Shown in pieces: positions 2,996 through 21,386 of a stretch of DNA of 64,000 bases. The translations under genes and the position numbers were made by a program. Positions within the stretch are counted from its first letter, which is position 1. Each line of letters opens with the position of its first letter. Source of the DNA: Thermoplasmata archaeon (GTDB lineage: Archaea; Thermoplasmatota; E2; JACPAO01; JAHFTW01); contig JAXDQS010000010.1 of the NCBI GenBank assembly GCA_034667725.1, forward strand, positions 128,001-192,000, written 5' to 3'. The notes beneath the pieces are model-generated. The model ran no database searches, had not been told where the DNA came from, and saw only the letters and a list, made by a program, of their open reading frames with translations.

Positions 2996-3290
2996 GACGA
3001 GCACTGATTCGCCCAGATTGGGAAGATTCCCACAGACAATCTGTGGAATTTTTTGGCTAGGCCCCGCCAAATTCAAAGCCAAGGTCTGTGGAATCTGTGT
3101 GCGTCGGGCACCCGACGGGCACCGATTCCCCCAGATTCGGAAGATTCCCACAGATCATCTGTGGAATTTCTGGTTAGGCCCCGCCAAATCCAAAGCAAGG
3201 GTCTGTGGAATCTGTGTCCAGTCGGCGGGAGACGCGACGGGCACTGATTCCCTCAGATTCGGAAGATTCCCACAGACCTCTTTGGAACTT
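2996..3290 (+). repeat. Palindromic mosaic repeat array 1
   Basis: Units start at 2996, 3114 and 3236 (periods 118 and 122): GACGRGCACYGATT..CAGATTSGGAAGATTCCCACAGA-nnn-TCTGTGGAATT..GGCTAGGCCCCGCCAAA..CAAAGC..GGTCTGTGGAATCTGTGT; between convergent genes. Confidence 0.95.
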
Positions 3291-3312
3291 GTCCGGTCGA
3301 GGAAACCGGCGT

Positions 3313-4764
3313 CTATCGGACGACCATCGGCTTGCCCGTCCCCGGCGCCGCCACCAGGTCGTGGTCCTCGACGACGGCCCGGCCCGCCAGGAAGGTGTGG
3401 CTGGGGAAGATGGCGTTGTGCCCCTCGAACGGAGTCCAGCCGCATTTGGCGTGCAGCTTCTTGGCCTCGACCTTGACGGTCTTCATGTCGTACACCGCGA
3501 AGTCGGCGCGCAAGCCGGGCTCCAGGCTGCCGCGGTCGTCCAGGCCCAGCAGCTGGGCGGGGTTGCGGGTGGCGGCGTCCACGACGACCTTGAGGTCCAC
3601 CTTGCCGGCCTTTGCCTGGGCCATCATGAGGGGCACCATGGTCTCGACGCCGGGCACGCCGCTGGGGGCCGCGTGGAAATTGTCCTCCTTCTCGATGCCG
3701 GTGTGCGGCGCGTGGTCGGACTCCAGGATGGGGATGCGGCCGGCGGCGAACAGGTCCCAGAGCTGCTTGCGGGCGGCGGGTCCGCGCAGGGGCGGGTTCA
3801 TCTTGCCGTAGGCGTGGGTGAGCGGGACGTTGGTGTCCAGCAGGAGGTGGTGCGGGCAGACGCCGAGGCTGAACTTGGCGGTGCGGGCGGCCTCGACGGC
3901 CTCGGCGCTGGCGGTGTGCGCGATGTGGATCTGGGGCGGCTTCTTGGTGGTGGCCACGGCCTTCATCGCGTCGTAGATGGCCTCGACCTCGGCCATCGGC
4001 GGGCGGAACATGTCGTGCTCCTGCAGGCTGGCCTCGTTGCGGCGGAGCTGCTGCAGGACGCGTTGGGACTCGGCGTGCAGGGCGACCGGGCGGCCGGCGG
4101 CGCCGGCGGCCTGGACGATGGCCTGGAACCGCGCCATGTCCTCCAGCAGGAGGTCGCCGGTGGTGGCGCCGAGGTAGGTCTTGACGCCGGCGGCGAGCTT
4201 GAGCATCTCCGGCAGGTCGCCGGTGTACCAGGAGCCGCCGGCCCAGGCGGCGTAGTCCACCACCGACTTCTGGGCCGCGAGGGCGAGCTTGTCCTTGAGC
4301 GCCCGGAGGGTGGTGGTCGCGGGCAGCGTGTTGGGCATGTCGACGAAGCCGGTGACGCCGCCGAAGGCCGCCGACACGGAGCCGGTGGTCAGGTCCTCCT
4401 TGTGGGTGTGGCCGGGCTCGCGGAAGTGGACGTGCAGGTCGATGGCGCCGGGCAGGATGGCCGCCGTGCCGAAGTCGTGATGGGTCGCAAGCGTCGTGGA
4501 CTTGGCAACGCGCACGATGCGGCCCGTGCGGGTGTCGATGTGCAGGACGCCGTCCGTGAGCTTGCCGCCGCGGTAGATTTGCCCTGCGATGGAGAGGTCG
4601 GCGTCGCCGTCGGTGTCGCGCGAGGCCACGCCGCCGGCCGCCTTGACGGTTCGGGTGGCGGGCTTGGGGGCCGCGACCTTGACGGGGGTTTTCTTGATGG
4701 GCTTCGCGACGGCCTTGGGCTTGGGCCTGGGCTTGGCCTTCGCCGCCTTGGCCGGCTTGGGCAT
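3313..4764 (-). CDS. pyrC: Dihydroorotase (amidohydrolase superfamily) with Lys/Ala/Pro-rich N-terminal extension
   Basis: DLHVHFREPG, DMPNT, CPHHL, KMNPPLR, SDHAPH, KCGWTPFEG; ATG 4764 overlaps the upstream stop. Confidence 0.85.
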   Translation of the reverse strand: MPKPAKAAKAKPRPKPKAVAKPIKKTPVKVAAPKPATRTVKAAGGVASRDTDGDADLSIAGQIYRGGKLTDGVLHIDTRTGRIVRVAKSTTLATHHDFGTAAILPGAIDLHVHFREPGHTHKEDLTTGSVSAAFGGVTGFVDMPNTLPATTTLRALKDKLALAAQKSVVDYAAWAGGSWYTGDLPEMLKLAAGVKTYLGATTGDLLLEDMARFQAIVQAAGAAGRPVALHAESQRVLQQLRRNEASLQEHDMFRPPMAEVEAIYDAMKAVATTKKPPQIHIAHTASAEAVEAARTAKFSLGVCPHHLLLDTNVPLTHAYGKMNPPLRGPAARKQLWDLFAAGRIPILESDHAPHTGIEKEDNFHAAPSGVPGVETMVPLMMAQAKAGKVDLKVVVDAATRNPAQLLGLDDRGSLEPGLRADFAVYDMKTVKVEAKKLHAKCGWTPFEGHNAIFPSHTFLAGRAVVEDHDLVAAPGTGKPMVVR

Positions 4765-5333
4765 CAGGCGAGCCCCCAGACGTTGATCTCGCCGGCGTCG
4801 ACCATCTCGGTGACGGAGGCGCGGAACGTGGTGAGCCAGCGGGCGAGCATCAGGCCGTGGCCCAGGATGAGGCCGGCAAGGACGCCGTTGAACGCGATGG
4901 CGGGGGCGCTCAGGACCTCGGTGGGGCCGGCGTCGCGCATCAGGGCCAGGACGACGAGGGTGGCCTCGACGCCCCAGAACACGAACAGCACGGCGGCGTA
5001 GAGGTAGGGGAGGTTGCGGCCGCTGCGGCCGTGGACCTTGCGGTGCAGCTCGGCGACCGACTCGGCGGCGGGGGCGTAGCGCATCCATTGGGTCCAAGTG
5101 CCGCGGATCGAGGCCTCGTATTTTCGGACCCGCATCCGGCCGGCAAGCAAGCCGACCAGGACGCCGACGAGGTAGGCGCCGGCGTGGACGGCCAGGCCGA
5201 CGAGCGGCATCAGCAGGTGGGCCAAGCCCAAGAACAGCAGGCCCAGCACGCCGCCCACCACCGCCCGGGTCCGGCAGGCACGCCGGTCCGCCCCCAGGAT
5301 GTCCAGGAAATGGCTGGCCACGCCTGAGGGCAT
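4764..5333 (-). CDS. Hypothetical 4-TM membrane protein
   Basis: 189 aa ORF with four hydrophobic segments; abuts the pyrC start. Confidence 0.7.
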   Translation of the reverse strand: MPSGVASHFLDILGADRRACRTRAVVGGVLGLLFLGLAHLLMPLVGLAVHAGAYLVGVLVGLLAGRMRVRKYEASIRGTWTQWMRYAPAAESVAELHRKVHGRSGRNLPYLYAAVLFVFWGVEATLVVLALMRDAGPTEVLSAPAIAFNGVLAGLILGHGLMLARWLTTFRASVTEMVDAGEINVWGLA

Positions 5334-5372
5334 GGCTCGGATGAGCCGCCCGCCTTTCTTGAAGGGCCCGGT

Positions 5373-6167
5373 TCAGTTCGGCGGGGCGTGGCCGAGCCAG
5401 CGCGCGAACACCAGGAACCCGGTGTGGCCCAACCCCTCGAAGCTGGGCCGGCTGCCGCGCTCCTTGACCTCCCAGCCGCGCTCGATCAATTCCAGCGCCC
5501 GCACCTGGGCAAAGCCAAGCTGGCCGAGGGCGCGGACGGTCGCCTCCATCTGGCTGACCTGCGGCGTGTAGCACGCGACCCGGGCGCCGGGGGCCAGCAC
5601 CGGGACGACATGGGGAAGGGCAAGCCAGGGCTCCGGCTGGTCCAGGAGGCAGGCCTGGAACGGGCCCGCGACGCCGGGGGCCAATCCTTGCGTCAAGTCG
5701 CCGATGGCGAGCCGCAGGCGGGCGTCGAGGCCGGCGCGGCGGGCGTTGTCGCGCGCCCAGTCGGCGAACTCGTCGCGCAGCTCCTGGGCGACCACCTCGC
5801 CTGCCGGGCCCACGGCCCAGAGGAGCGGGAGGGTGACGGCGCCGCTGCCGATGCCGGACTCCAGCACGCGCGAGCCGACCCCGACGCCGAGCTCCCACAC
5901 GATGCGGCTGGCGTCCTTCGGCGTGATGATCTGCGCCTTGCGCTGGAGGGTCGCGGCGAGGTCCACGAGGTCGGGGCGCAGCACGACGACGGCCTTGGCG
6001 CCGACGGTGGCGCGGGCGCCGTAGGGAAGCCCCTCGATGCGGGCGGGGTCGAACACGCCGAGGCCCTTCTGCTTGCGGGCGCCTTGGCCGTCGAGCTGGA
6101 CGAGGTGGACGTGACCCGTGTCGGGCTCCAAGAGGGCAACACGGTCCCCGGCCTGGACGGCCGTCAT
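5373..6167 (-). CDS. trmI: tRNA (adenine-N1)-methyltransferase TrmI/GCD14
   Basis: RKAQIITPKD, VLESGIGSG, LDQPEPW, YTPQVSQ, GHTGFLVFAR. Confidence 0.92.
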   Translation of the reverse strand: MTAVQAGDRVALLEPDTGHVHLVQLDGQGARKQKGLGVFDPARIEGLPYGARATVGAKAVVVLRPDLVDLAATLQRKAQIITPKDASRIVWELGVGVGSRVLESGIGSGAVTLPLLWAVGPAGEVVAQELRDEFADWARDNARRAGLDARLRLAIGDLTQGLAPGVAGPFQACLLDQPEPWLALPHVVPVLAPGARVACYTPQVSQMEATVRALGQLGFAQVRALELIERGWEVKERGSRPSFEGLGHTGFLVFARWLGHAPPN

Positions 6168-6517
6168 GGCTTCAGGGCGGCCTGGAGCTTGGCCTGCAGC
6201 TGGCCCATCTGCTCGCGCAGCTGCTGCTCCTGCTTCTGCATCCGCGCGACCCGGATCTCGAGGGTCTCGAGGTCTTCCTTGAGCTTGTCCACGGCCGCCT
6301 GCTTGGACGGCTCCTTCACCAGGAGGGCGCCGACGCTGCGGTAGACGGGCGCGTCGGCCGGCAGGGACTCCAGGGCCGCGAGCGCCTGCTCGGACTCCGC
6401 CTTCATCGCCTCGAACTGCCCGCGCTGGGCCGCCGTGGCCTGCATCTGCTGGTTCAGCGCCTGCAACGTCTGGAGCTGCTGCTGGACCTGGGGCGGGAGG
6501 GACTGGGCGTCGGCCAC
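6164..6517 (-). CDS. pfdB: Prefoldin subunit beta
   Basis: 117 aa coiled coil - VYRSVGALLVK hairpin - coiled coil; LPPQVQQQL N-terminus. Confidence 0.92.
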   Translation of the reverse strand: MADAQSLPPQVQQQLQTLQALNQQMQATAAQRGQFEAMKAESEQALAALESLPADAPVYRSVGALLVKEPSKQAAVDKLKEDLETLEIRVARMQKQEQQLREQMGQLQAKLQAALKP

Positions 6518-6564
6518 GGCGCGGGGCAGGAGGGGGCGGCTTAAGAGATGCGGACTCAGGCGAC

Positions 6565-7044
6565 TCAGGCGTCTTCGTCCTGGGCTTCATGGGCCAGCTC
6601 GGCAACACGGGGATGCGCCTTCTTGGCATTCAGGAAGTCCGATTCCAGCTCGGCCAGCTCCTGCGGGCGCATCACCAGCAAGACCAAGGGGCCGCCCAGG
6701 CCGACGTCGTCCACGCGGCAGAAGCTGAGCTCCACGTCATGCGAGTGCCCAAGGGGTCCCTGAATCCGGGTCCGCAGGATGTCCTGCGCGTGGCCCGGCC
6801 ACTCGCCGACCTCCTGCTCCGAGCACGCGCGCGCGATCCTGGTGACGTCCGGGTCCGTGAAGATGCGGTTGAGCCTCGCGCCCAACGCCTGGTCCACAGG
6901 AAGGCCCGACATCTCCTTTGCGGCCCGGTTGAACAGCACGACCTCCTGCCCCGGGAAGCGGACCAACACCAACCCGTCGCGGACGTTGTCGAAGATTCCG
7001 GGGAGGCCGAACCTCGCCTGGTCCTGGGCAGCCCCGCGAGCCAT
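6565..7044 (-). CDS. Stand-alone PAS-domain protein
   Basis: IFDNVRDGLVLV...VVLFNRAAKEMSG...LG..L..IF and VELSF..V PAS pattern. Confidence 0.7.
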   Translation of the reverse strand: MARGAAQDQARFGLPGIFDNVRDGLVLVRFPGQEVVLFNRAAKEMSGLPVDQALGARLNRIFTDPDVTRIARACSEQEVGEWPGHAQDILRTRIQGPLGHSHDVELSFCRVDDVGLGGPLVLLVMRPQELAELESDFLNAKKAHPRVAELAHEAQDEDA

Positions 7045-7284
7045 GGGCACTCAAGGGGTCCTGGGTTCATCCGCCCCTCGCCTGCGGCAAGCCCGAGGCG
7101 CGGCGAAGGACGGCGCGCACCGGCAGCCGGTCATCCTTGGGGGTGCGGCAACGGTTCCGGGGGCGGATGGACGAGCCGGCCGACGGCCCTTTGCGCTCCC
7201 GGCCGGCGGCCGACGGCCCCAGGGCCTTCGGCCCGACCCCAAAACACCAAAGGCTCGAACCTGTTCGAGTCCTTGGCGAACGCG

Positions 7285-7974
7285 ATGGGGATGACCGAGC
7301 TGCTGTTCCAGGTCGAGCTGCCGGAGTGGCCGCTGGCGACCTTCACCCGCGAGGTGCGCGACTCGCGCGTCATCATGAACCACATCCGGTTCGACGACGA
7401 CCACTTCCCGACGCGCAACATCTTCACGGTGCTGGCGCCGGAAGAGCACTACCCGCGGCTGGTCAACGCCCTGCGCGACTTCTACACCACCGTGACCGTG
7501 CTCCGGCAGGACGCCCAGGCCCTGTCCGTCCTCGTCGAGCCCGCCCCCGACCGGATGCGGTTCCTCAAGGCGCCCTTCACCGCCGCCCTGCGCGCCCTAG
7601 GCCCCGACCGCATCCTGCGGCCCATCATCATCAAGGACGGCTGGATGACCGTCGGCATCATCACGGCGGCCCAGATCGAGATCGGCGACATCATCCGCAC
7701 GGCGGGCGAGTCGTTCAAGCGCGCCGGCCTCAACATGAAGCTCATCCGGTGGGGCGAGTACCGCCCGGAGGACCACCCCATCGGCGACTTCGAGGAGAAG
7801 CTGACGCCCAAGCAGACGGAGATCGTCAAGATGGGCCTCGCGCTGGGCTTCTACGACAACCCGCGGCGCTGCAACCTCGAGACGCTGGCCGGCGTGTTCG
7901 GCATCTCCAAGGCGGCGGCGCACAACCGCCTCAAGAGCGCCGAGCGCAAGATCCTCACGAGCTACTTCAGCTGA
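7285..7974 (+). CDS. HTH-10 (bacterio-opsin activator-type) transcriptional regulator
   Basis: C-terminal LTPKQTEIVKMGLALGFYDNPRRCNLETLAGVFGISKAAAHNRLKSAERKI. Confidence 0.88.
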   Translation: MGMTELLFQVELPEWPLATFTREVRDSRVIMNHIRFDDDHFPTRNIFTVLAPEEHYPRLVNALRDFYTTVTVLRQDAQALSVLVEPAPDRMRFLKAPFTAALRALGPDRILRPIIIKDGWMTVGIITAAQIEIGDIIRTAGESFKRAGLNMKLIRWGEYRPEDHPIGDFEEKLTPKQTEIVKMGLALGFYDNPRRCNLETLAGVFGISKAAAHNRLKSAERKILTSYFS

Positions 7975-7976
7975 CC

Positions 7977-8480
7977 ATGCCCCGCGCCCCGTTGCCCATC
8001 CCCGAGGAGACCAAGGCGGTCGCGGCCCGCGACCGCGGCCTGGCCCGCGCCAGCGCCGCGCTGGCGCTCGCCGGCGTGCTGGCCTGCGCGCTGCCGTTCT
8101 GGCTCGCCCCGGGGATGCACGCCGACCGGGAGGGCCTCTGGGTCGCGGCGGCCTGCGTGCCCCTCGGCCTGCTGCTGCCGGTCTTTGCCCTGCGCCGCGC
8201 CGGCCTGGCCCCGCTTGCCGCGGGCGCGGCGGCCGGCCTGCTGCTCGGCCTCTGGGTCCATGCGCTCGCGACCGACCCGGCGCGCACCGCCGACTTTTGG
8301 CTCGCCTACGTCCTGGGCCTCGCGGCCGCGGCCGTCGGCGGCGGCGTCGCCGGCACCATCTGGTCGATGGCGGCCGACGACGAGCTGCGCGGCGTCCAGC
8401 TCGGCTGCGCCGTGGCCTGCGCCTGGCTGGTCGCTTGGGGCGGCACCGCCTTCGCCTTGGCTGTTGCCTGGCAAAGCTGA
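7977..8480 (+). CDS. Hypothetical multi-pass membrane protein
   Basis: ATG 2 nt after the upstream stop; about five hydrophobic helices. Confidence 0.6.
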   Translation: MPRAPLPIPEETKAVAARDRGLARASAALALAGVLACALPFWLAPGMHADREGLWVAAACVPLGLLLPVFALRRAGLAPLAAGAAAGLLLGLWVHALATDPARTADFWLAYVLGLAAAAVGGGVAGTIWSMAADDELRGVQLGCAVACAWLVAWGGTAFALAVAWQS

Positions 8481-8507
8481 AGTGCCCCCCGCCACCGTTC
8501 CCGCGCG

Positions 8508-9290
8508 ATGCAGCCCGGCCAGCCGCGCCCTGCGAAAGCCGCCAAGGCCACCGTCAAGCCGGCGACGAAGACGGTGCTGGTGGCCCAGCACCCGGCCGTC
8601 GCCGTCACGCAAGTGGAGGTCCAGGCGCCGGCGTCGGCCGTGGCCCGCGAGCCGCCCGGCCTGCTGGTCGCGCACTACGCGACGCTCTGCATCCCCGTCC
8701 TGCTGGCGGTGCTGTTCGTCGCCGGCCACGACGCCATGGACCGGCCGAATCCTGACGCCGGGGCCGCGCGGACCATGTACACCGTCGTGCTGGTCGCCGG
8801 CGTCGTGGGCTTGGCGGGCAGCGCCTACCTCGCCACGCGCAGCCACCCCGTGGCCATGCTCGGCGTCGCCGCCGGCATCCCGATCGCCCTCTGGGTGGCC
8901 TCGCTGGCCCGCGTCTACGGCGGCTACTACTGCGACAACATGAACCGGTGGTCCTGGAGCACCACCTACCCGTGCAACCGGGACGCCCTCATCGGCGGCG
9001 ACGTGACCCTGCTTGCGACCTTGCCCCTCATCGGCGCCGGCGTCGCCGCCGCCTTCCTGCACCGCGCCAACGCCAAGGCCGCGATGGCGCTGTTCGTCGG
9101 CACCACCATGGCGCTGGGCGCCGCCTTCGCCCTCGCCGCGGCGCTCGTCCTGCCCCAGGTCGGCGGCGACGTCGCCAAGGCCTCGGCCGCCAACCAGGTC
9201 GTCCACCACACGCCGGGCGTCGAGCTGGCCGTCCTCGCGGCCGCCCTGCTGGGCCTCGCCGCCATCGGGCGCCTGCGCCGCCGCCGCTAG
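8508..9290 (+). CDS. Multi-pass membrane protein with PGF-CTERM-like tail
   Basis: Several TM helices, a Cys-pair loop (YYCD...YPCN), C-terminus TPGVELAVLAAALLGLAAIGRLRRRR. Confidence 0.65.
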   Translation: MQPGQPRPAKAAKATVKPATKTVLVAQHPAVAVTQVEVQAPASAVAREPPGLLVAHYATLCIPVLLAVLFVAGHDAMDRPNPDAGAARTMYTVVLVAGVVGLAGSAYLATRSHPVAMLGVAAGIPIALWVASLARVYGGYYCDNMNRWSWSTTYPCNRDALIGGDVTLLATLPLIGAGVAAAFLHRANAKAAMALFVGTTMALGAAFALAAALVLPQVGGDVAKASAANQVVHHTPGVELAVLAAALLGLAAIGRLRRRR

Positions 9291-9619
9291 CGCAGCGTCC
9301 GGTCGAGCTTCGCCAGGTGGGTGCGCCAGAAGTCGGCCACGTCGCCGACGTAGCCCGCCGCCTCGCGCAGCCCCGCGTCCGCGATGGCGTGCCAGCGCTC
9401 GCGCCCGCGCGCCTCGACCTGCACCAGCCCCGCGGCGCGCAGCACCCGCAGGTGGCGCGACACCGCCGGCCGGCTCACCGCGAACCGCGCCGCCACGTCG
9501 CCGGCCCGCATCGGCCCCGCCGCCAGCACGACGAGGATCTGCCGCCGCGTGGCGTCCGCCAACGCGCGGAACGCCTCGTCCTGCACGGCGGCCTTGCGGG
9601 TCCGGACGGCGCGCGGCAT
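9287..9619 (-). CDS. ArsR/SmtB-family regulator
   Basis: AFRALADATRRQIL...VSRPAVSRHLRVLRAAGLV...GRER. Confidence 0.9.
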   Translation of the reverse strand: MPRAVRTRKAAVQDEAFRALADATRRQILVVLAAGPMRAGDVAARFAVSRPAVSRHLRVLRAAGLVQVEARGRERWHAIADAGLREAAGYVGDVADFWRTHLAKLDRTLR

Positions 9620-10101
9620 CAGGCCTTCGCCTTGGCGGCGGCCTTGACCTCGGCGCGCGGCGGCGCCGCGCCGGTGTCGCGCAGCCGCTGGGCGACCATC
9701 GGGATCGAGCGGCGCACCATCTGGGCCCACCCCTTGTCCATGCCCTTCTTCATGAGAAGGCCCATGAAGCCGGCGAGGCCGCCGTGGCGGAACTCCAACC
9801 GGGTGCCGCCGTCCGGCGTCGGCGTCAGCGTGAACGACACCAGGCTGGGCGACTTGTCCTTGCCGACGTTCCAGCGCAGCGCGAAGCGGCGCGGCGGGTC
9901 GGCCTCCACCACCTCGCACGGGCAGACGCCGTCCCAGAACGGGCGCGGCTTGTCGCGGAACGAGAAGCGGTGGCCCACCTTGGCCTCCACGAAGTCGTTC
10001 TCCATCAGCCAGGCGTCCAGGCCGGGCTTGGTGGCGATGGCCTGCCAGACGGCCTCCGGCGGCAGCGGGTAGGTGGCCTCGTGGACGATGTCGTCAGCCA
10101 T
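9619..10101 (-). CDS. SRPBCC/AHSA1-like ligand-binding protein
   Basis: PPEAVWQAI...WL...VG..F...EVVEADPPRR...W...GTRLEFRH; typical ArsR partner. Confidence 0.88.
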   Translation of the reverse strand: MADDIVHEATYPLPPEAVWQAIATKPGLDAWLMENDFVEAKVGHRFSFRDKPRPFWDGVCPCEVVEADPPRRFALRWNVGKDKSPSLVSFTLTPTPDGGTRLEFRHGGLAGFMGLLMKKGMDKGWAQMVRRSIPMVAQRLRDTGAAPPRAEVKAAAKAKA

Positions 10102-10311
10102 GAGGCGCAGGACCCGAGGGCGGGGCAAAGCGTTGCCGCATGGTTACAGATTGGGGACTTCTTTGGCCGGGGGCCGCCGCGCGCGCAGGGACCGAGGGCG
10201 CCCGCCTGCGCGAGCGCCAGCGAGCGCACGGGCCGAGGGAGCGGCCCCCTCGCCGGCTGGGGGTCCGGGGCGCGCAGCGCCCCGGCGCCGGATAGGCGCA
10301 GCCTATACGTG

Positions 10312-10695: not shown

Positions 10696-10811
10696 GCACG
10701 GCCTCAGAAGCGGGCACGGGCAGGCCTTGATAAACCGTTTCGGAGCCCGGGCGGCCAGTCGCACGGCCTTGCGGGAAAACTTATGCCCGACGCAGGGCGT
10801 GGTCGTCCCAG

Positions 10812-12999: not shown

Positions 13000-13953
13000 A
13001 TGGCGTTTGCCGTCCACAGCCCGGCGCTGTTCGTGGGGGGCCTGCTGCTGCTGGCAGCGGTTCCCCTGGCAGCCCAGGGCGAGTGGCGCGTGTGGGCTTT
13101 CGACCACCCGGTGAGCAACCTGGAGTGGGACGAAGGGGGCCACGGGCCCGCCTTCGCCGCCGGCGGCTCCGGTGGCGGCGGCACGCATTCCGGTGGGGGC
13201 TCCGGTGGCCGCAGCACACATTCCGGTGGAGGCTCCGGTGGCGGCGGCACCCATTCCGGCGGTGGAGGCAGCGGTGGGGGCGGGGGCGGCAGTGGCACCC
13301 ACCCGAGCACCGGCACCGCCACGCCGGCCAAGGGCGGCGGCAGCGGCGCAGACACGCCCGCCACCGGCTCCGGCCTCACGGCGGGCTCCGGCGGGACCGG
13401 CCCTGGCGGCTCCGGCGGCCTGCTGGGCATCCTCGGCTCCGGCGGCCAGGGCTCCGGCGGCGGCTGGGGGGGCTCCCAGGGCGCCGGCTGGGGCTCGTTC
13501 GCCGCTGGCTTTGCAGCCTTCTTCATCGGGTTGGCCGCTGCCTTCGCCGCCTTCGCCAAGGCGCTCGCGGCGTTCGCGGCCGGCCTCTCGAAGATGTTCG
13601 CGGGTTGGGTTTTCCTCATTCCCGGCCTGCTTGCCATGCTTCTGTGGACATACTTCGGCATTCTGGGCGGCCTGCTGGCGGCCACGGCCATCGTGGTCTT
13701 CGCGCTCGTGGCCAACGCCGCCCAAGTCCCGGCCGTGGCCGCGGCGGCCGCCCCGCCGCCGGAGCTCGGCGTGCCCGTGGCAGACGAGGGGTGGGTGCCC
13801 CCGCAGGACGCCGCGGTGCCCGGGGAGGCGGCGGCGAAGAAGGGGTCCGCCAAGAAGGCGACCGCGACGAAGGCCACCGCCAAGAAGGCCGCCACGAAGA
13901 AGGCCAAGGGCACGGCCAAGACAGCACCCAAGAAGGCCGCCCGCAAACCGTAG
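13000..13953 (+). CDS. Glycine-rich membrane protein with Lys/Ala-rich C-terminal tail
   Basis: Signal-like N-terminus, GGGSGGGGTHS repeats, hydrophobic block, AAKKGSAKKATATKATAKKAATKK tail. Confidence 0.7.
   Translation: MAFAVHSPALFVGGLLLLAAVPLAAQGEWRVWAFDHPVSNLEWDEGGHGPAFAAGGSGGGGTHSGGGSGGRSTHSGGGSGGGGTHSGGGGSGGGGGGSGTHPSTGTATPAKGGGSGADTPATGSGLTAGSGGTGPGGSGGLLGILGSGGQGSGGGWGGSQGAGWGSFAAGFAAFFIGLAAAFAAFAKALAAFAAGLSKMFAGWVFLIPGLLAMLLWTYFGILGGLLAATAIVVFALVANAAQVPAVAAAAAPPPELGVPVADEGWVPPQDAAVPGEAAAKKGSAKKATATKATAKKAATKKAKGTAKTAPKKAARKP
13162..13260 (+). repeat. Intragenic 33-bp tandem repeat (GGGSGGGGTHS x3)
   Basis: CATTCC at 13186, 13219 and 13252, period 33. Confidence 0.85.
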
Positions 13954-13995
13954 TCGCGGCAACGGTCAAGACCCACCCGGCCCCATGGCGCCCTG

Positions 13996-15468
13996 ATGCC
14001 CAAGGCCGTGCGCACCTCCAGCGACGGCCTGCGCCGCGAGCTGAACCTGTTCGGCGCCGTCTCGCTCATCGTCGGCATCGTGATCGGCTCCGGCATCTTC
14101 CTCGGCGTCAACCGGGTGGCGGCCGGCGCCGGCTCGCCCGCCTTGGTCGTCCTGGTCTGGGTCCTCGGCGGCGCCCTTACCGTCATCGGCGCCCTCACCT
14201 ACGCAGAGCTGGGCACGATGTTCCCGCGCGCCGGCGGCGAGTACGTCTTCCTGCGCGAGGGCCTTGGCGGCTTCTGGGCGTTCCTGTCCGGCTGGACGGC
14301 CTTCACCATCAACCTGGCCGGCTCGGCGGCGGCGCTCGCGGTGGTGTTCGCGGCCCAGCTCGACGCGCTCAAGCCCGCCGGGTTTGGCGCGTTCGTGCTG
14401 GTGGACGCCTGGATCGCCGGCTACCACCTCGTCATCGAGGGCGTCAAGGTCACGGCGGCGGCCACCATCCTGCTGCTCGCGATCGTCAACTACTTCGGCA
14501 TCCGGCTCGGCGGCAACGTCCAGAAGACCCTCACCGTGCTGAAGTACACCCTTATCGTCGGCTTGGCCGCGGCGGCGCTGTTCTACTTCGGCGACAGCCC
14601 CACGCCCGACGTCGGCTTCTTCGAGGACGCCCGCTACAGCTACCACGAAGGTGGCGGCGGCACGGGCCCGATGGTGGTCCACGACGGCTTCGACCTCGGC
14701 CAGTTCCTCGGCCTCGCCATGGTCGCGGCGCTGTTTGCCTACGACGGCTGGACCAACGTGGTGCGCGTCGGCTCCGAGCTGCGGGACCCCGCCCGCAACC
14801 TCCCCAAGGCGATGCTCCTGGGCCTCGGCTCGGTGGCCGTGCTCTACATCCTCGTCAGCTTCGGCTACCTGCAGGTCCTCGGGTTCGCGGGCTTCGCCCA
14901 GAGCCCCAAGACGGTCGCCAGCGACGCCGCCCACGTGCTGTTCGGCGGCCCCGGCCAAGCCATCGTCGCCAGCATGATTCTGGTCTCGGTGGCCGGCAGC
15001 CTCAACGGCATCACCATCAGCGGCCCGCGCGTCTACTACGCCATGAGCCGCGACGGCGTCTTCCCCACCATGTTCTCGAAGGTCAACCGCCACGCCGTGC
15101 CCGCCCGCGCCATCTGGGTCCAGGCCGGCCTCAGCGTGCTGTTCCTGTTCTTCTTCGACTTCGAGTCGCTCACCGACAACGTGGTGTTCATCTCGTTCAT
15201 CTTCTACGCCATGGCCGCCGTCGGCCTCATGGTCCTGCGCAAGACCCGGCCCGACCTGGAGCGCCCCTACAAGGTGCCCGGCTACCCGGTCGTCCCGCTG
15301 CTGTTCATCGCGACCTCGCTCGCCTTCGTCGGCTACCTCTTGTGGCAGCAGGTCACGACCTTCTCGGCGAACAACTTCAGCCGCCTCGCGGGCCTCGCCG
15401 TCGTCGCGGCGGGCGTGCCGGTGTATTTCTGGTACCGCAAGCACCGCGGTCCGGTCAGCACGTCGTGA
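13996..15468 (+). CDS. APC-family amino acid permease
   Basis: LRRELNL, IGSGIF, YAELGTMFPRAGGEY, FAYDGW, ELRDPARNLP, RPYKVPGYP. Confidence 0.93.
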   Translation: MPKAVRTSSDGLRRELNLFGAVSLIVGIVIGSGIFLGVNRVAAGAGSPALVVLVWVLGGALTVIGALTYAELGTMFPRAGGEYVFLREGLGGFWAFLSGWTAFTINLAGSAAALAVVFAAQLDALKPAGFGAFVLVDAWIAGYHLVIEGVKVTAAATILLLAIVNYFGIRLGGNVQKTLTVLKYTLIVGLAAAALFYFGDSPTPDVGFFEDARYSYHEGGGGTGPMVVHDGFDLGQFLGLAMVAALFAYDGWTNVVRVGSELRDPARNLPKAMLLGLGSVAVLYILVSFGYLQVLGFAGFAQSPKTVASDAAHVLFGGPGQAIVASMILVSVAGSLNGITISGPRVYYAMSRDGVFPTMFSKVNRHAVPARAIWVQAGLSVLFLFFFDFESLTDNVVFISFIFYAMAAVGLMVLRKTRPDLERPYKVPGYPVVPLLFIATSLAFVGYLLWQQVTTFSANNFSRLAGLAVVAAGVPVYFWYRKHRGPVSTS

Positions 15469-16252
15469 GCGCGAGCGCCTTCGCCAGCACCGTGTACTCC
15501 CACGGCGACACCTCGGCCGCCGTCCGCGCCGCGCCGTTGACCTGGGCGATCGCCTCGGTCACGGCCTGCGGCGGCACGCCGAGCGTCTCCGCAAGCGGCG
15601 CCAGGCTGTGCCGCAGTGTCCGCGCCTTCGCCCCCCATGCCGCCTCCAGCACGGTGTCCAGCATCGCGAGGTCGAGCGCCTCGTCGCGCGGCTTGGGCCG
15701 AATCTCGACGACGCAGCACGGCACCGCCGGCGGCGGGTCGAAGTCCTTGCGGCGCAGCGGGAACAGCACCTTGGCCTTGGCGCGCGCCGCCACCTGCACC
15801 GTGAGCCGGCCGTAGCCCTCCTGCTTCGGCCCCGCCGTCAGCCGCTCCGCCAACTCCTGCGGCATCACCAGGACGGCGTGCCCGAAGCCATGGTCCAGCA
15901 GGCGGCGCAGCAGCGCAGGCAGGATGCGGAACGGCGGGTTCGAGACCACCGCGTCGATGCGCGGCGGCAAGCGGACCGCGAGCGCGTCGCCCTGCACGAC
16001 GCGGACGCCCGGCAGCGCCATGCTCGCAAGGCGCCCGGCCCGGTCGGCGTCGCGCTCGACCGCGAGCACCGAGCCGCCCGGCTGCACGGCCGCCGCCACC
16101 GCCCGCGTGAGGGCGCCCGTGCCGGCGCCCACGTCGAGCGCGTGCAGGCCCGGCGCGAGGCCGGCGGCGGCCACCAGCCGCGCCACGACCTCGGGGCTCG
16201 CCGACAGGAAGTGGGCGCCCTCCGCGCGGGTCTCGGGGTCGGTGCGGGGCAC
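15455..16252 (-). CDS. rsmA: rRNA adenine dimethyltransferase KsgA/RsmA family
   Basis: AHFL, DVGAGTG, VERD, GDAL, SNPPF, ELAERL, YGRLTV, FDPPPAV. Confidence 0.8.
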   Translation of the reverse strand: MPRTDPETRAEGAHFLSASPEVVARLVAAAGLAPGLHALDVGAGTGALTRAVAAAVQPGGSVLAVERDADRAGRLASMALPGVRVVQGDALAVRLPPRIDAVVSNPPFRILPALLRRLLDHGFGHAVLVMPQELAERLTAGPKQEGYGRLTVQVAARAKAKVLFPLRRKDFDPPPAVPCCVVEIRPKPRDEALDLAMLDTVLEAAWGAKARTLRHSLAPLAETLGVPPQAVTEAIAQVNGAARTAAEVSPWEYTVLAKALALTTC

Positions 16253-16302
16253 GGCCGCGCCACGGGCGAAGTCCTCATCCCCTTTGCCCTCCTGACCGCC
16301 GC

Positions 16303-17979
16303 GTGGACGCGCTCGAGGCCGCCCGCCGCCTGGCCGACGCCGCCTTCGAGGCGTGGCGGCGCATCCAGGACGACGCCGACCGGCACGCCAAGGTCGGCCT
16401 GGGCGCGGGCGGCAACCTCACCAGCCGCGCCGACGCCGTGCTGGAGGCCGCCATCCTGGAGGAGGCGCGCCGGCTCGGCATCGCGGTGCTGTCCGAGGAG
16501 GCCGGCCTCGTGGACATCCCGGACTCCAAGTGGCTCGCCGTGGTGGACCCGCTCGACGGCAGCCGCAACGCCGGCCGCGGCATCCCGTTCCACTGCACCA
16601 GCGTCGCCATCGCCCCGCGCGCCGGGACCCTCAAGGACCTGGAGGCCGGCGTGGTGCGGAACCTCGTCACCGGCGACACCTACGCCTGCCGCAAGGGCGG
16701 CGGCGCCACCGTCAATGGCAAGCCGCTGGCGCCCGCCGCGTTCGACCCCGAGGAGGTCATGGTCGGCGTCATCGCAGACTACTCCGAGACCGAGATCGAC
16801 GAGGCGCACGCCAGCCCCGACCACCACATCCGCGACCTGGGGTCGGCGGCGCTGGAGATGTGCCTCGTCGGCACCGGCGCCCTCGACGCCTTCATCGTCC
16901 GCAAGCCGTGGCTCCGGGTCATCGACCTGGCCGCCGCGACCCTGTTCATCCGCGAGTGCGGCGGCGCCGTCCACGATCCGATGACGGGCCTGGAGCTGGA
17001 GGTCCACCTCGATCTCGCGGTGCGCTGCGGCGTGCTTGCGACCCACGACGCCGAGGCGCGGCAGGCGGTCTCCACCACCCGCATCCGGCCCGTGCGGACG
17101 CCGGCGGGCAAGATGACCGGCCCCGTCACGCCGGGCCAGGACACGGCCCTCACCTGGGCCATCGTCGGCAAGGGCGGCATCCCGCACATCCGCCGCGAGG
17201 CGATGTGGCTGCGGCAGGCGCTCCTGGACCGCGGCCAGCACGTCCTGTTGGAGGAGGACTTGGCGAAGGCGACCGGCGAGAAGGGCCACACCCTCGACCA
17301 GCTCGACCGCGACGCCGACCTGTTTTTGACCGTGGGCGGCGACGGCACCATCCTGATGGTCCTGCACGCCACCGACAAGCCGATCTTCGGCGTCAACGCG
17401 GGCGCCATCGGGTTCCTCGCCGAGGTGGAGCCGCCGCAGGCCGCGCTCGGCATCGACCAGATTATCCGCGGCGACTACCGGGTCGAGCAGCGCGACAAGC
17501 TCCAGGCCTGGCTCGACCAGCGCCGCCTCCCGGACGCCACCAACGAGGTCACGCTGCAGACCAGCCGCATCGCCAAGCTCATCCGCTTCACCATCACCGT
17601 CTCGGGCGAGGTGCTGGACACGCTGCGCGGCGACGGCATCATCGTCAGCACCGCGACGGGCAGCACTGGCTACGCCATGAGCGTCGGCGGGCCCCTCGTC
17701 CATCCCCTCGTCCACGGCACCGTGCTGGCCCCGATCGCGCCGTTCCGCCTCAGCGCGCGGCCATGGGTCGTGCCCTCCGACGCCGTGATCGAGCTGACCC
17801 TGCTGGAGCGCGACAGCAGCCAAGGCGAGCAGCACGCCCGCGTCGTCGTGGACGGCCAGCACGGCCTCGACGTCCGCCCAGGCCAGACCGTCCGCATCAT
17901 GCCGAGCCCCCGCAAGGCCCGCTTCATCCGCCTCGGCTCCGGCTACTACGAACGGGTCCGCACCAAGCTCACGAGGTGA
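16303..17979 (+). CDS. Bifunctional NADP phosphatase (IMPase fold) / NAD kinase
   Basis: N-terminal SEE, DPLDGS, RDLGSAALE; C-terminal GGDGT, NE, GDG, TATGSTGY. Confidence 0.9.
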   Translation: MDALEAARRLADAAFEAWRRIQDDADRHAKVGLGAGGNLTSRADAVLEAAILEEARRLGIAVLSEEAGLVDIPDSKWLAVVDPLDGSRNAGRGIPFHCTSVAIAPRAGTLKDLEAGVVRNLVTGDTYACRKGGGATVNGKPLAPAAFDPEEVMVGVIADYSETEIDEAHASPDHHIRDLGSAALEMCLVGTGALDAFIVRKPWLRVIDLAAATLFIRECGGAVHDPMTGLELEVHLDLAVRCGVLATHDAEARQAVSTTRIRPVRTPAGKMTGPVTPGQDTALTWAIVGKGGIPHIRREAMWLRQALLDRGQHVLLEEDLAKATGEKGHTLDQLDRDADLFLTVGGDGTILMVLHATDKPIFGVNAGAIGFLAEVEPPQAALGIDQIIRGDYRVEQRDKLQAWLDQRRLPDATNEVTLQTSRIAKLIRFTITVSGEVLDTLRGDGIIVSTATGSTGYAMSVGGPLVHPLVHGTVLAPIAPFRLSARPWVVPSDAVIELTLLERDSSQGEQHARVVVDGQHGLDVRPGQTVRIMPSPRKARFIRLGSGYYERVRTKLTR

Positions 17980-17984
17980 GGGGC

Positions 17985-18527
17985 GTGGGATGGTTCGGCC
18001 GCAACAAGACCCGCCGCTTGGCCGTGCGGGAGGGCTACGAGAAACTGCCCGAGGAGGAATGGACCGAGGACGAGGTCGACCACCACCTCCAGACCTGCTC
18101 CGAGGACGAATACTGGGCCTACTGGGACCGCTGGAGCCTGGACACTTACGAGCACCCCACCGTCCGCAAGATCCGCAAGTCGGCGCTCGACATGGGCTTC
18201 GAGGCCGCGCGCGCCAGCTTCCCCCAAGAGTTCGGCTGCATGCTCCGGGTCGAGAAGGACACCATCACCGAACTCGTCCTGGTCCCCGGCACCATCCAAG
18301 GCGACGAGCACGCCATCTTCGCCCTGGGCAACCTCCCGGTGGACCGCAGCATCCAAGGCACGCTGCACAGCCACCCCGACCCGCATCCCTACCCAAGCGA
18401 CGCCGACTTCGAATTGTTCGAGCACCACGGCACCATCCACCTGATCCTCGCGCAGCCGTACGAGGGCGAGGCGTGGCGGGCGTACGACCACACTGGCGTG
18501 CCGACCTACTTGGACGTCGTTGACTGA
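17985..18527 (+). CDS. JAMM/MPN+ (Mov34) metalloprotease
   Basis: FPQEF...GTLHSHP.PHPYPSDAD; GAGGTG RBS upstream of GTG 17985. Confidence 0.85.
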   Translation: MGWFGRNKTRRLAVREGYEKLPEEEWTEDEVDHHLQTCSEDEYWAYWDRWSLDTYEHPTVRKIRKSALDMGFEAARASFPQEFGCMLRVEKDTITELVLVPGTIQGDEHAIFALGNLPVDRSIQGTLHSHPDPHPYPSDADFELFEHHGTIHLILAQPYEGEAWRAYDHTGVPTYLDVVD

Positions 18528-18531
18528 CCCA

Positions 18532-18822
18532 CGGGCACCCGACGAGCACCGATTTTCACAGATTCGGAAGATTCCCACAGAGGTCTGTGGAATTTTTGGC
18601 TAGGCCCAGCCAAATCCAAGCAAGGGTCTGTGGAATCTGTGTGCGTCGGGCACCCGACGGGCACCGATTCCCCCAGATTCGGAAGATTCCCACAGACGAT
18701 CTGGGGAATTTTGGCTAGGCCCCTCCAACTCCAAAGCCAGGGTCTGTGGAATCTGTGTGCGACGGGCACTGATTCCCTCAGATTGGGAAGATTCCCACAG
18801 GCGGTCTGTGGAGTCTGGGTCC
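18532..18822 (+). repeat. Palindromic mosaic repeat array 2
   Basis: Same unit as array 1, starting at 18541, 18656 and 18761; begins just after the 18527 stop. Confidence 0.95.
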
Positions 18823-18870
18823 AATTGGCAGTGGCGCAGGTTGAAACCTCCCAGCCCGCTCCAGTGACCG

Positions 18871-19851
18871 ATGGAGGCCTGGGAGCCATGGGTCGCCGCC
18901 GCCTTCGCCCCCGCCGCCGTGTGGGTCCTCTGGCGCTTCCAGACCTGGTCGGTCGAGTTCTTGCGCTGGCGCCTCGTCAAGCTGGTGGGCCACGCCAACT
19001 GGCTGTACGCGACGGTGAGCTTCTTCGGCGTCCTGCTGCATGAGCTGAGCCACGCCTCGGTGCTGCTGCTCTCCGGCCACGGCGTGAAGGAGTTCCGCAG
19101 CGGCATGGAGTCCGGCCACGTCCTGCCCGCCCGCACGCGCACCGGGTTCGTCGGCACGCTCTCGTTCTTGGTCGCGGCGCTGGCGCCCATGTTCATCCCG
19201 CCGCTGCTGGTCCTCCTTGGCGTCGTCTTCCTGGTGGACCGCGGCGTCGTGGACCTGCTGCCCGGCGGCGACGGCCTCCTGGGCGCCTGGGAAGGCCTGC
19301 GCGTCGTCCTCGTCGAGTTCCCCGTCCGCTTCGCCCAAGCCGTCGCCCGCCTCGACCTCGCCCACTGGCCCCACCTCGTCGTCCTGCTGCTCCTCTTGCT
19401 CGGGATGCCGGCGGCCCGCCCCAGCCACATCAAGCGCAGCCGGTTCCACGGCGGCTCCGAAGGCGACGTCGCCGTCCTCCGGGCCCGCATCCGGCACAAC
19501 CCGGTCCCGTTCCTGCTGTTTTTGGCCCTCCTCTACGCCGCCTACCTCACGGTGCGCGTCTGGCTGCCCGAGGCCTACTGGGGCGCGTTCCAATGGGTCT
19601 GGGCCGTCGCCGCCACCGGCGTCCTCCTGTCCGCGTTCGGCGCCGCCTGGTGGAGCCTCGCCGCCATGAACGCCCGCACCAGCCTGCTGTTCGCCTGGGT
19701 GCCGTTCCTGCTGTTCGTCGCCGTCGAGACGGCGCTGCGCGTCGTGCGCCCCACCGACCCCATGTGGGCCAACGCGGCGGCCGTGGCGGCATGGGCGGGC
19801 GCGACGGCGGTGCTGCGGTTCATGTTCCCGCGCCGGGTGCGCTCCTTCTGA
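18871..19851 (+). CDS. M50/M50B-like membrane zinc metallopeptidase
   Basis: LLHELSH in a hydrophobic segment, LAP, later Asp (SEGD); many TM helices. Confidence 0.7.
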   Translation: MEAWEPWVAAAFAPAAVWVLWRFQTWSVEFLRWRLVKLVGHANWLYATVSFFGVLLHELSHASVLLLSGHGVKEFRSGMESGHVLPARTRTGFVGTLSFLVAALAPMFIPPLLVLLGVVFLVDRGVVDLLPGGDGLLGAWEGLRVVLVEFPVRFAQAVARLDLAHWPHLVVLLLLLLGMPAARPSHIKRSRFHGGSEGDVAVLRARIRHNPVPFLLFLALLYAAYLTVRVWLPEAYWGAFQWVWAVAATGVLLSAFGAAWWSLAAMNARTSLLFAWVPFLLFVAVETALRVVRPTDPMWANAAAVAAWAGATAVLRFMFPRRVRSF

Positions 19852-19890
19852 AAGCGAACGCTTTTGCCGCGCGCCCGAGGTCTTGCCGCG

Positions 19891-20631
19891 ATGGGGCGCC
19901 TCCACCTCTTGCCCGGCGAGCGCGAGGAGCTCCGCCTGCGCCCCGCCGCCCTGAGCCGCCTCCCGGACTACGCCGTGGCCTTGGCCCCCGCGGCCGGCGC
20001 GGGCCTGCTCTGGCTTGCGACCCTGGCGCCCAGCTGGCGCCCGCCGGCCGCCGACGCGCCGTGGCTGCACCAAATCTACGGCACGCCGTTCGCCGTGGCG
20101 CTCTACGCCCTCGTGGTGCTGGCGGCCGCGGGCGCTGCGCACCTGCTGCTGCGCCGCAAGGCGTGGGGCTTGCTGGCCGCCGTCGGCGCGATGCTCTGGC
20201 TTGCGGCCGGGGTCGTTGCGTTCCCCGACGTGTCCGCCGAAACGCGCATCCCGGTCCAGCTTGCGTGCCTCAGCGTGCCGGCGCTGGCGTGGGTCGAGAC
20301 GGTGCGCCGCACGACCCGCTACGCCGTCACCAACCTCCGCCTCGTCGTCCAGGTCGCGCTGCCGCGCGCGGCCCAGGGCGCGTTCCTGCACGAGGATCTA
20401 GTGGACGTGGACGGCAGGCGCGGCCTCGGCGACACCGGCACCATCACCGCCGTGCGGCGCGGCACCGAGGCGCCCCGCGAGCTGCACCTGGCCGGCGTGC
20501 GGCCCTACAAGCGGGTGCTGGCGGCCGTCGAGCTGTTGGTGCAGAAGGCGACCCAGAGCGAGGCGCTGCGGCGGCAGGCGGGCATCGACCGGCGCGTCGG
20601 CGAGGCGCTGGCGGCGCTGCAACGGCATTAG
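19891..20631 (+). CDS. Membrane protein with bacterial PH-like domain
   Basis: LLPGE...LRP, TM helices, TRYAVTNLRLVV...GTI. Confidence 0.6.
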   Translation: MGRLHLLPGEREELRLRPAALSRLPDYAVALAPAAGAGLLWLATLAPSWRPPAADAPWLHQIYGTPFAVALYALVVLAAAGAAHLLLRRKAWGLLAAVGAMLWLAAGVVAFPDVSAETRIPVQLACLSVPALAWVETVRRTTRYAVTNLRLVVQVALPRAAQGAFLHEDLVDVDGRRGLGDTGTITAVRRGTEAPRELHLAGVRPYKRVLAAVELLVQKATQSEALRRQAGIDRRVGEALAALQRH

Positions 20632-20678
20632 CGACCCGCGCCACCACCGTTAAGGAGCAGGGCGGCGTCGCTGCGACC

Positions 20679-20993
20679 GTGCCCTTCTGCCCGAACTGCA
20701 AGAAGCTGGTCTATCCCGTCAAGGGCCAGATGACCTGCAAGAACCCCGCCTGCAACTGGACGGGGGAGGCGGCCGAGTCGGGCTCCATCCTGCGCAGCAC
20801 CGCCGGCGAGGGCACCCGCAAGCGCGTCATCCTGGAGGAGAAGGTCGAGGCCCGTCCCGAACAGGTCATCACCTGCCCGAAGTGCCAGCACAACAAGGCC
20901 TACTTCCACCTCATGCAGACCCGCCGCTCCGACGAGCCGCCGACGCAGATCAACGAGTGCGTCAAGTGCGGCCACTCCTGGCGCGAGTACTAG
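20679..20993 (+). CDS. tfs: Transcription factor S (RpoM/TFS)
   Basis: Two Zn ribbons (CPNC..C..C; CPKC..CVKC), QTRRSDEP, terminal WREY. Confidence 0.93.
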   Translation: MPFCPNCKKLVYPVKGQMTCKNPACNWTGEAAESGSILRSTAGEGTRKRVILEEKVEARPEQVITCPKCQHNKAYFHLMQTRRSDEPPTQINECVKCGHSWREY

Positions 20994-20999
20994 CTTCTC

Positions 21000-21386
21000 G
21001 ACGCGCGCCGATTCCCGCAGACGGTCTGTGGAGTTTTTCGCCACGCCCCGCCAGAATCAAAGCCAGGGTCTGTGTGCGTCGGGGAAACGGACGGGCACTG
21101 ATTTTTTCCCTGATTCGGAAGATTCCCACAGACTATCTGTGGAATTCTGTTCCTAGGCCCCGCCAACTCCAAAGCCAGGGTCTGTGGAATCTGTGTGCGT
21201 GGGGCACCCGACGGGCACCGATCTTCACAGATTGGGAAGATTCCCACAGATGATCTGTGGAATTTTTGGCTAGGCCCTGCCAGGTCCAATGTCGGGGTCT
21301 GTGGAATCTGTGTGCGTCGGGCGCCCGACGGGCACTGATTCCCTCAGATTCGGAAGATTCCCTCAGAGCTTGTGGAATCCTTGTCC
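21000..21386 (+). repeat. Palindromic mosaic repeat array 3
   Basis: Units at 21000 (degenerate), 21090, 21210 and 21327 (partial); begins 7 nt after the tfs stop. Confidence 0.95.

Follow-up and report, generated by a model that had tools for sequence, protein, structure and literature searches.

The window, that is, the whole stretch of 64,000 nucleotides (nt) analysed here, comes from a Thermoplasmata archaeon and covers positions 128,001 to 192,000 of contig JAXDQS010000010.1 (C10:128001-192000) in assembly GCA_034667725.1 (G000), which comprises 2.32 Mb in 26 contigs, has a G+C content of 71% and is 90% complete. The host is an archaeon, and the window proteins include PCNA and a zinc ribbon of the TFS type. 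Three intergenic gaps of the window hold arrays of a palindromic repeat. These arrays are very probably gene-less members of a family of palindromes whose arms also accompany genes for small nucleases of the GxxExxY family (TIGR04256/PF13366).

Repeat arrays in the window

Each array is a mosaic of two modules, L and R, and all three read along the + strand. Array 1 (2996-3290) is composed of L 2996-3050, R 3051-3112, L 3113-3167, R 3168-3234 and a final L 3235-3290 with a decayed right arm. It lies between the convergent genes 2224-2979(+) and 3313-4764(-), the latter encoding an amidohydrolase, and begins 16 nt after a stop codon (2977-2979). Array 2 (18532-18822) consists of a half-terminus 18532-18539, L 18540-18592, R 18593-18654, L 18655-18708, R 18709-18759 and L 18760-18822. 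Its neighbours are co-directional genes for a JAB-domain protein, 17985-18527(+), and a membrane protein, 18871-19851(+), and its distance from the stop codon (18525-18527) is 4-12 nt. Array 3 (21000-21386) comprises a partial L 21000-21034, a truncated R 21035-21088, L 21089-21146, R 21147-21208, L 21209-21263, R 21264-21325 and L 21326-21386. It is flanked by the convergent genes 20679-20993(+), which encodes the TFS-type zinc ribbon, and 21442-21687(-), and starts 6 nt behind a stop codon (20991-20993).

The first-pass annotation of the window had placed three equally oriented arrays at these positions, close behind + strand stop codons, and this description holds, with starts 4-16 nt after the stops. 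Its count of ten L modules, some of them degenerate, is reached once the degenerate first L of array 3 is included. The proposed repeat length of about 105-122 bp agrees with the periods of 118, 115 and 117 nt given by Tandem Repeats Finder for arrays 1-3 (2.1-2.6 copies). In a repeat search, nine L copies and seven R copies fell into register, every one of them on the + strand, and both TCTGTGGAATCTGTG (at most one mismatch; eight occurrences) and the pattern of the inner hairpin described below (five occurrences) scored 0.00 across 100 shuffles of the window.

A fourth member, overlooked in that first reading, is a stand-alone simple palindrome at 59902-59956 (no strand assigned), in which a 20-nt arm ACACAGATTCCACAGA, a 15-nt loop and a 20-nt inverted arm CTGTGGAATCTGTGTCCAG follow each other. 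It is situated between convergent genes, 6 nt off the stop of the right-hand gene, and its DNA fold reaches -21 kcal/mol (z -5.1).

Other tandem repeats of the window are of the coding type and unrelated to the arrays; they lie at 13165-13283 (33-nt period) and, G+C-rich and with 9/18-nt periods, at about 52800-53560. At gathering score the sole Rfam match in the window is a tRNA (56921-56994), and the arrays match no family.

Anatomy of the units

The basic palindrome has a left arm (C)TGGACACAGATTCCACAGA and a right arm TCTGTGGAATCTGTGTCCAG, which amounts to two phased 9-nt words per side, in register in all arrays. The word reads CACAGATTC on the left and GAATCTGTG on the right, and the arms end in the caps CCCGACG and CGTCGGG. 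The recurrence of GATT and CTGTG at a spacing of 9-10 nt, noticed at first reading, is present. The simplest form is the 55-nt perfect hairpin at 59902-59956. The L unit (~74 nt) runs arm-loop-arm, with a loop of 3-4 nt and a short G+C-rich tail after it, and its left arm has one extra word (…CACYGATTC-nCACAGATTC-GGAAGATTC-CCACAGA); alone, it recurs with a period of ~74 nt, for example in the four units of C7:17782-18070. R consists of a ~43-nt insert, which contains a small hairpin (TTGGC…GCCAA), and of a further right arm behind it, so that the L+R unit (~117 nt) becomes a branched palindrome.

In folds of L+R DNA the two ends of the unit, 5' CGACGGGCAC-GATTCC and 3' GGAATC-TGTG…GTCG, pair with each other and enclose the inner hairpins; every unit is therefore a complete foldback with branches. 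The motif CGTCGGG-CA-CCCGACG, proposed as a second hairpin that joins units, is present at 3100-3117 (no strand assigned) and recurs at 18642-18659, 21195-21212 and 21312-21329; we read it as the right terminus of one unit abutting the left terminus of the next. L+R units also carry a run of five to six T after the inner hairpin on the + strand, and the whole-array fold exceeds that of shuffled sequences on both strands (z -6.3 and -4.4).

Stems and loops were tallied in 92 of 94 L units, anchored on the genome-wide profile introduced below. These 92 units carry 36 different loops. The departure from consensus per site is 0.00-0.20 in the arms (mean ~0.04) and 0.31-0.57 at five of the seven loop positions, the last loop position departing by 0.12 in 3-nt loops and by 0.00 in 4-nt loops. 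The contrast between a conserved stem and a varying loop, from which selection on a hairpin had been proposed, is thus real, but the proposal itself finds no support within this family: among 48 altered stem pairs one is compensated, 13 are wobble pairs and 34 are broken. Since the changes are uncompensated, the conservation is one of sequence and not demonstrably of pairing, and it would reflect a recent origin or a protein-binding word. Real covariation is found between families, where both arms of different cassettes have switched together to another word.

A dispersed intergenic family

A profile built from six window units matched the genome 106 times, in 38 arrays (58 L, 36 L+R, one R and 11 partial matches) with a median length of 254 nt and a maximum of 515 nt. 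The 20-nt right arm (up to three mismatches) has 130 copies in the genome. Outside the arrays 25 copies are distributed over 15 loci, most of them in palindromes whose perfect 20-nt inverted arms enclose a loop of 2-17 nt. CACAGATTNCACAGA occurs 91 times, against 0 for a reversed control. The dispersed, non-autonomous, hairpin-forming family that had been expected from the window is thus represented by 38 arrays and 15 single loci.

This family is intergenic. Overlap between an array and a called gene never exceeds 30 nt, and arrays fill a median of 71% of their gap. Convergent gaps account for 31 of the 52 occupied gaps, against 360 of 2124 genome-wide (binomial P 6e-12). A gene 3' end adjoins 33 of the 38 arrays, at a distance of at most 30 nt in 24 of those 33. 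Arrays in co-directional gaps run in the same sense as the genes in four cases and antisense in seven. All profile matches within an array lie on one strand, the exception being two separate arrays within a single gap of contig C5. The AT-richness relative to the host that had been noted for the window arrays is a feature of the family, with a G+C content of 56% in arrays, 66% in all intergenic DNA and 71% in the genome. Arrays make up about 4% of the intergenic DNA of the genome and account for its AT-rich islands behind genes.

Five contigs (C1, of 368 kb, C2, C4, C11 and C12) contain no L or L+R arrays, with about 12 expected from their length; simple palindromes of CACAGATTC and the CACGGAT hairpins described below do occur on them. 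The array-free contigs may reflect a regional bias or heterogeneity of the bin. Arrays paired in opposite orientation at a distance of 4-5 kb (C10:118957-124664, C3:143968-148119 and C3:382191-387951) were considered as composite elements and rejected, the genes between them being ordinary-looking as judged from N-terminal sequences, without a family search; such pairs are probably merely operon ends.

The resident GxxExxY gene and its protein

The genome contains a single GxxExxY gene, at C5:135449-135892(-) and thus on another contig than the window, which scores 128 bits with TIGR04256 (cut-off 35) and 119 bits with PF13366 (cut-off 22). Its 3' end runs into three units of 93-97 nt (C5:135202-135464), a fourth copy is located at C5:135014-135114, and the arms of all four are identical to those of the window arrays. 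The first-pass annotation had pointed to similar repeats beside GxxExxY genes in some bacteria. This link proved real: the sole gene of the genome abuts copies with the same arms, and GxxExxY genes have the same words beside them in other phyla and different words throughout the genus, as detailed in the next section.

Across 34 sequences from the genus, E27, Y30, E77 and K79 are invariant and D67 is nearly so, and the E..D..ExK motif of the resident gene is intact. An AlphaFold model of the resident protein (predicted local distance difference test, pLDDT, 91) found its best fold match in the Protein Data Bank (PDB) in chains of SSO0001 (4ic1; E 1e-4, TM 0.52 over 101 columns), followed by lambda exonuclease, RecE, the nuclease domains of AdnAB/AddAB and chains of the Cas4 family; a PDB search with the protein sequence gave 0 matches. 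The protein is accordingly predicted to be a PD-(D/E)XK nuclease with a Cas4/RecB-like fold. No relative was detected in the viral contigs searched. A partner of the type that accompanies repetitive extragenic palindromes (REPs) in bacteria, the REP-associated tyrosine transposase (RAYT), had been suggested for the repeats and was not found: the Y1/RAYT family PF01797 has 0 matches in this 90%-complete genome and matched the control genomes, DDE families being outside the search.

The function of PF13366/PDDEXK_3 is given as 'Unknown' in the excerpts consulted of a 2012 survey of PD-(D/E)XK proteins (PMC3424549). A literature search by family names and repeat words (bioRxiv supplements outside) returned only passing mentions of GxxExxY and no link to repeats.

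Cassettes and their words in the genus and beyond

GxxExxY genes are present in all 12 other genomes of the genus, one to eight apiece. They were found in none of 12 genomes from other genera of the family, none of six from the order and one of ten from the class. In a sample of the phylum, 25 of 301 genomes score above the cut-off and 16 of 137 genera match at E ≤ 0.001. By a mechanical mark, the same inverted 9-nt word stands on both sides of the gene in 20 of 36 genus cassettes, on one side in 10 and on neither in 6.

The word varies among paralogues (CACCGAT, CGCCGAT, CGCGGAT, CGCAGAT, CACGAAT, CACGGAA, CACGGGG, CACTGAA, AACAGAT and CACAGAT), and where the protein tree is resolved, proteins with the same word group together (CACGAAT 97/98; a CACCGAT pair 99/93; CGCAGAT pairs). 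The G000 protein falls into a polytomy of this short-protein tree together with two other CACAGAT-type genes. Many GxxExxY frames of the genus, for example those of loci L145, L190, L185 and L143, extend into the downstream arm, so that repeat words code for their C-terminal tails (with runs like S-V-T-S-V).

The co-occurrence of words and genes was tabulated for five word dimers in 13 genus genomes, with 0-2 matches for reversed-pattern controls. A gene with the same word is present in 17 of the 27 high-copy cells (at least 20 hits) and in 3 of the 38 low-copy cells (Fisher 4e-6), in a table that includes non-independent relatives, words attributed by visual inspection and four assemblies of 65-76% completeness.

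In G000 itself, CACGGAT hairpins form a second family, of about 26 compact members. Each is 57 nt long, its arms contain three CACGGATNN words apiece, and the pattern matches the genome 81 times in 28 clusters. The hairpins lie on C1, C2, C3, C4, C6, C7, C10 (outside the window; for example C10:437530-437586), C11 and C12. They are not enriched in convergent gaps (6 of 28).

Outside the genus, loci were fetched by a 16-letter word, which yielded at least 124 loci in many phyla; many of these are possibly due to chance, and the set is no measure of taxonomic range. Among the matches listed, six lie within 1.5 kb of a GxxExxY homologue: one each from a cyanobacterium, a Flavobacterium and a metagenome-assembled genome of Planctomycetota, two overlapping ones from Prevotella, and one more. 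The gene is bracketed there by inverted word runs or by a hairpin on each side. About 45 of the word loci among the matches listed show both arm orientations. One locus, L063 (a Frigoriflavimonas record), contains at 1380-4836 at least 12 tandem units of ~180 nt in a Bacteroidota genome of 31% G+C; these units are built of inverted arms of CAC(A/G)GATTT words and parallel the window arrays.

Shared spacers with different palindromes

The spacer between the JAB and membrane-protein genes, which holds array 2 in the window, was compared in ten relatives of the same genus. It is empty (0-15 nt) in G009, G002, G007 and G006. A palindrome of GCAGAG words occupies it in G011, one of CGCGGA words in G003 and one of CACGAA words in G008. 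In G005 (L164) it holds an AACCGAT palindrome with a AACAGATG palindrome nested inside. The ~85 nt of the spacer in G012 show no evident repeats, and in G004 the locus is not syntenic. G003 and G008 possess GxxExxY genes with exactly the words of their spacers. Palindromes of other words are likewise found behind the TFS gene in G002 and G012 and behind the amidohydrolase gene in G012, and the word of G012 (TACGGGAAT type) also brackets a GxxExxY gene that is split into two overlapping pieces (L210, G012:C49:414-1556). By this comparison of relatives, gene 3' ends have gained palindromes repeatedly and independently. In a metagenome scan, the JAB protein matched one locus, distant and out of synteny, and strain-level empty sites were not obtained.

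How the arrays may have arisen

For none of the 35 full L+R units is the nearest relative found in the same array, and mean identity is 0.82 within arrays (12 pairs) and 0.81 between arrays (583 pairs), which argues against a young local tandem duplication. The arrays look like side-by-side insertions, in which units would have arrived singly beside existing copies; older arrays may later have been homogenised by conversion. Such single arrival next to existing copies is described for unordered clusters of REPINs, the hairpin-forming form of REP sequences, in the excerpts consulted of PMC3116915.

Exact contigs of sequencing run X1 pass from unique DNA into all three arrays (3249-3813, 17557-18586 and 19124-21164); this run holds 94% of the sampled words of the stretch and may be its source sample, and is thus no independent support. 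Logan contigs of two soil metagenomes include none that spans a whole array and would confirm the unit number, and the joints they show may be array variants or may come from cross-mapping of other loci. The difference of ~18% between units argues against an assembly artefact by collapse or expansion. Two other identities were rejected: the arrays repeat as whole units with no unique spacers, unlike a clustered regularly interspaced short palindromic repeat (CRISPR) array, and their copy number is far too high for replication-origin boxes.

Favoured explanation and alternatives

Taken as a whole, the explanation to which we give somewhat better than an even chance is that the window arrays are stacked gene-less foldbacks, relatives of a nuclease cassette that are moved by it. 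Each array would comprise two to four complete foldback elements inserted side by side right behind a stop codon. The full-length relative would be the cassette, where arms of this kind enclose the small GxxExxY nuclease gene. The nuclease, probably as a multimer, would read the phased array of words on folded-back or single-stranded DNA and would cut at the ends of the element, and this cutting would allow the cassette and its gene-less copies to be copied to new sites, with a preference for gene 3' ends and for spots next to existing copies. The observations above establish that the arrays belong to the family, how they are built and placed, the tie between gene and repeat, the repeated independent invasion of one spacer and the intact catalytic motif; binding, cutting and movement by the nuclease are what we infer from them, and for its mobilisation of the repeats the chances appear evenly balanced.

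Several observations weigh against this explanation. Upstream of the resident gene there is only a decayed hairpin, and the stems, as reported above, change without compensation. A mutual-information scan of protein columns against word letters gave noisy C-terminal columns only and no clean specificity residue. For ten of the 27 high-copy word families the assembly in question lacks a cognate gene; these orphans occur in G010 (three words), G001 (two), G002, G003, G005 (two) and G000. G002, which is 90% complete, has 134 matches to CACAGATT and no gene with the same word, and in G000 no GxxExxY gene is flanked by CACGGA, the resident gene being linked to CACAGATT. A word common to a gene and to gene-less copies would also be expected from simple descent, through loss of the gene from a cassette. 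Insertion boundaries and target duplications are undefinable at the shared spacers because the flanking proteins are only 57-76% identical (57-69% for the comparison with the four empty spacers), and the context statistics rest on gene calls from our own crude codon-usage finder (90% coding). Finally, the movement of the elements is deduced from comparing genomes.

The orphan families are also an argument for a different view, in which the palindromes spread without GxxExxY, through host replication or repair acting on hairpins or through another transposase; the gene would then be cargo or a selfish lodger, and the word would be shared by descent. The column scan without a specificity-determining residue and the six armless genes of the genus point the same way. 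We nevertheless consider this view unlikely. Phased arms of a single word around genes, with the word changing among paralogues, are hard to explain without sequence-specific recognition. High-copy families are enriched for the words of resident genes, and no Y1 transposase was found in the genome. As to the orphan CACGGAT family of G000, its word differs from CACAGAT by one letter, and cross-service by the resident protein is therefore possible; loss of the gene or an assembly gap would be equally possible reasons for its orphan status.

The nuclease could alternatively use the repeats as marks and cut single-stranded DNA beside them, in recombination, DNA uptake or defence, with the repeats spreading by other means. 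The precedent is Ssn, a nuclease that cleaves the NTS/SRM repeats flanking its gene, with demonstrated activity, and whose logic of association is the same, as far as the excerpts consulted of PMC11893778 go. The closest folds of the GxxExxY protein, being those of Cas4/RecB-type nucleases that act on single strands or DNA ends, are in line with such a role. It would leave unexplained that whole cassettes (gene and both arms) sit at different loci in different species and that one spacer was invaded independently by different words, and the fold is PD-(D/E)XK and not GIY-YIG, so that we regard it as improbable.

A host function, with arrays kept as terminators, as protectors of mRNA 3' ends or as sites for chromatin proteins and only an incidental link to the nuclease, would fit the position right behind stops and strongly between convergent genes, the T5-6 run after the inner hairpin, which is on the strand that is sense for each of the three upstream window genes, and the better-than-shuffled fold of the whole array on both strands. 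Co-directional gaps, however, show no orientation bias (four sense, seven antisense), and the role in RNA 3' ends considered in the first-pass annotation finds no support there. The stems lack compensatory change, the JAB spacer is simply without a repeat in four congeners, the CACGGAT family shows no preference for convergent genes and no Rfam family matches at gathering score. This explanation is very improbable.

Local tandem duplication by slippage, as in mycobacterial interspersed repetitive units (MIRU) or variable-number tandem repeats (VNTR), or a unit number made by the assembly would suit the head-to-tail direct units, their regular period and the missing independent bridge across a whole array, but is hardly credible for a family at more than 50 loci whose L+R units always have their nearest relative elsewhere and differ by ~18% within arrays, and whose window arrays are entered from unique DNA by exact, if not independent, contigs of X1.

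Implications

Beyond this genome, we tentatively suggest, at rather less than an even chance, that GxxExxY is a family of small Cas4-like nucleases in which each paralogue reads its own 9-nt word presented in phased array on a foldback and drives selfish or domesticated repeats in the manner of REP/RAYT, across many bacterial phyla and whole archaeal genera. If this were so, ten or more word specificities would be on offer in a single genus as a natural panel (CACAGAT, CACGGAT, CACCGAT, CGCAGAT, CGCCGAT, CGCGGAT, CACGAAT, CACTGAA, AACAGAT and TACGGGA). A large orphan protein family, PF13366/TIGR04256 being represented in many phyla, would gain a function and might become a source of sequence-specific nucleases. 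The partnership of repeat and GxxExxY was not described in the literature searched by family names and words, among them CACAGATT with AATCTGTG. The genus is a compact test bed, since it combines genes with their own words, matching and orphan gene-less families and one spacer that was invaded several times independently.

Comparison with known systems

The arrays resemble the bacterial interspersed mosaic elements (BIMEs), to which they had first been likened, in being mosaic clusters that stand between genes, at their 3' ends, and draw on a small set of recurring modules. Successive REPs of a BIME point in opposite directions. The units of the arrays, in contrast, are all direct, head-to-tail on one strand, and the likeness does not extend to the build. 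With miniature inverted-repeat transposable elements (MITEs) the family shares terminal inverted repeats (arms of 20-24 nt in the simple form), the lack of coding capacity, a high copy number and a gene-bearing relative. Unlike in MITEs, the full-length form carries a tiny nuclease gene and no recognised transposase, and the element is little more than two arms; GxxExxY is the only gene found inside such arms, the transposase search having covered PF01797 only.

REP/REPIN-RAYT systems come close in several respects. According to the excerpts consulted of Bertels & Rainey 2011 (PMC3116915), these are likewise short, dispersed, extragenic and non-autonomous hairpin repeats in tens to hundreds of copies, each flavour clusters by a cognate gene of single or low copy, and clusters grow by insertion in or next to existing copies. 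The same excerpts describe ordered REPIN clusters as nearly identical tandem copies (PMC3116915), whereas the units here are equally diverged within and between arrays. The partner here is a PD-(D/E)XK protein of ~120-150 amino acids (aa) instead of a Y1 HUH transposase, each arm is an array of 9-nt words where those systems have a single REP, the units are all direct and the host is archaeal.

Ssn with its NTS/SRM repeats offers the second parallel: a small nuclease gene has the same hairpin repeat on either side, hundreds of copies of this repeat are scattered, variant repeats accompany variant genes and the association extends across phyla, as far as the excerpts consulted of that work show (Chenal et al. 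2025, PMC11893778). Ssn belongs to the GIY-YIG superfamily, whereas the gene flanked by the repeat here is a PD-(D/E)XK member of PF13366 (Ssn itself was not searched for), the arms here are phased arrays of 9-nt words, and an activity, demonstrated for Ssn, is a prediction for GxxExxY. If GxxExxY proteins do act on these palindromes or mobilise them, they would constitute a third class of enzymes paired with genome-wide hairpin repeats, after the Y1 RAYTs and the GIY-YIG Ssn, and such a pairing of repeat and enzyme would operate in Archaea.

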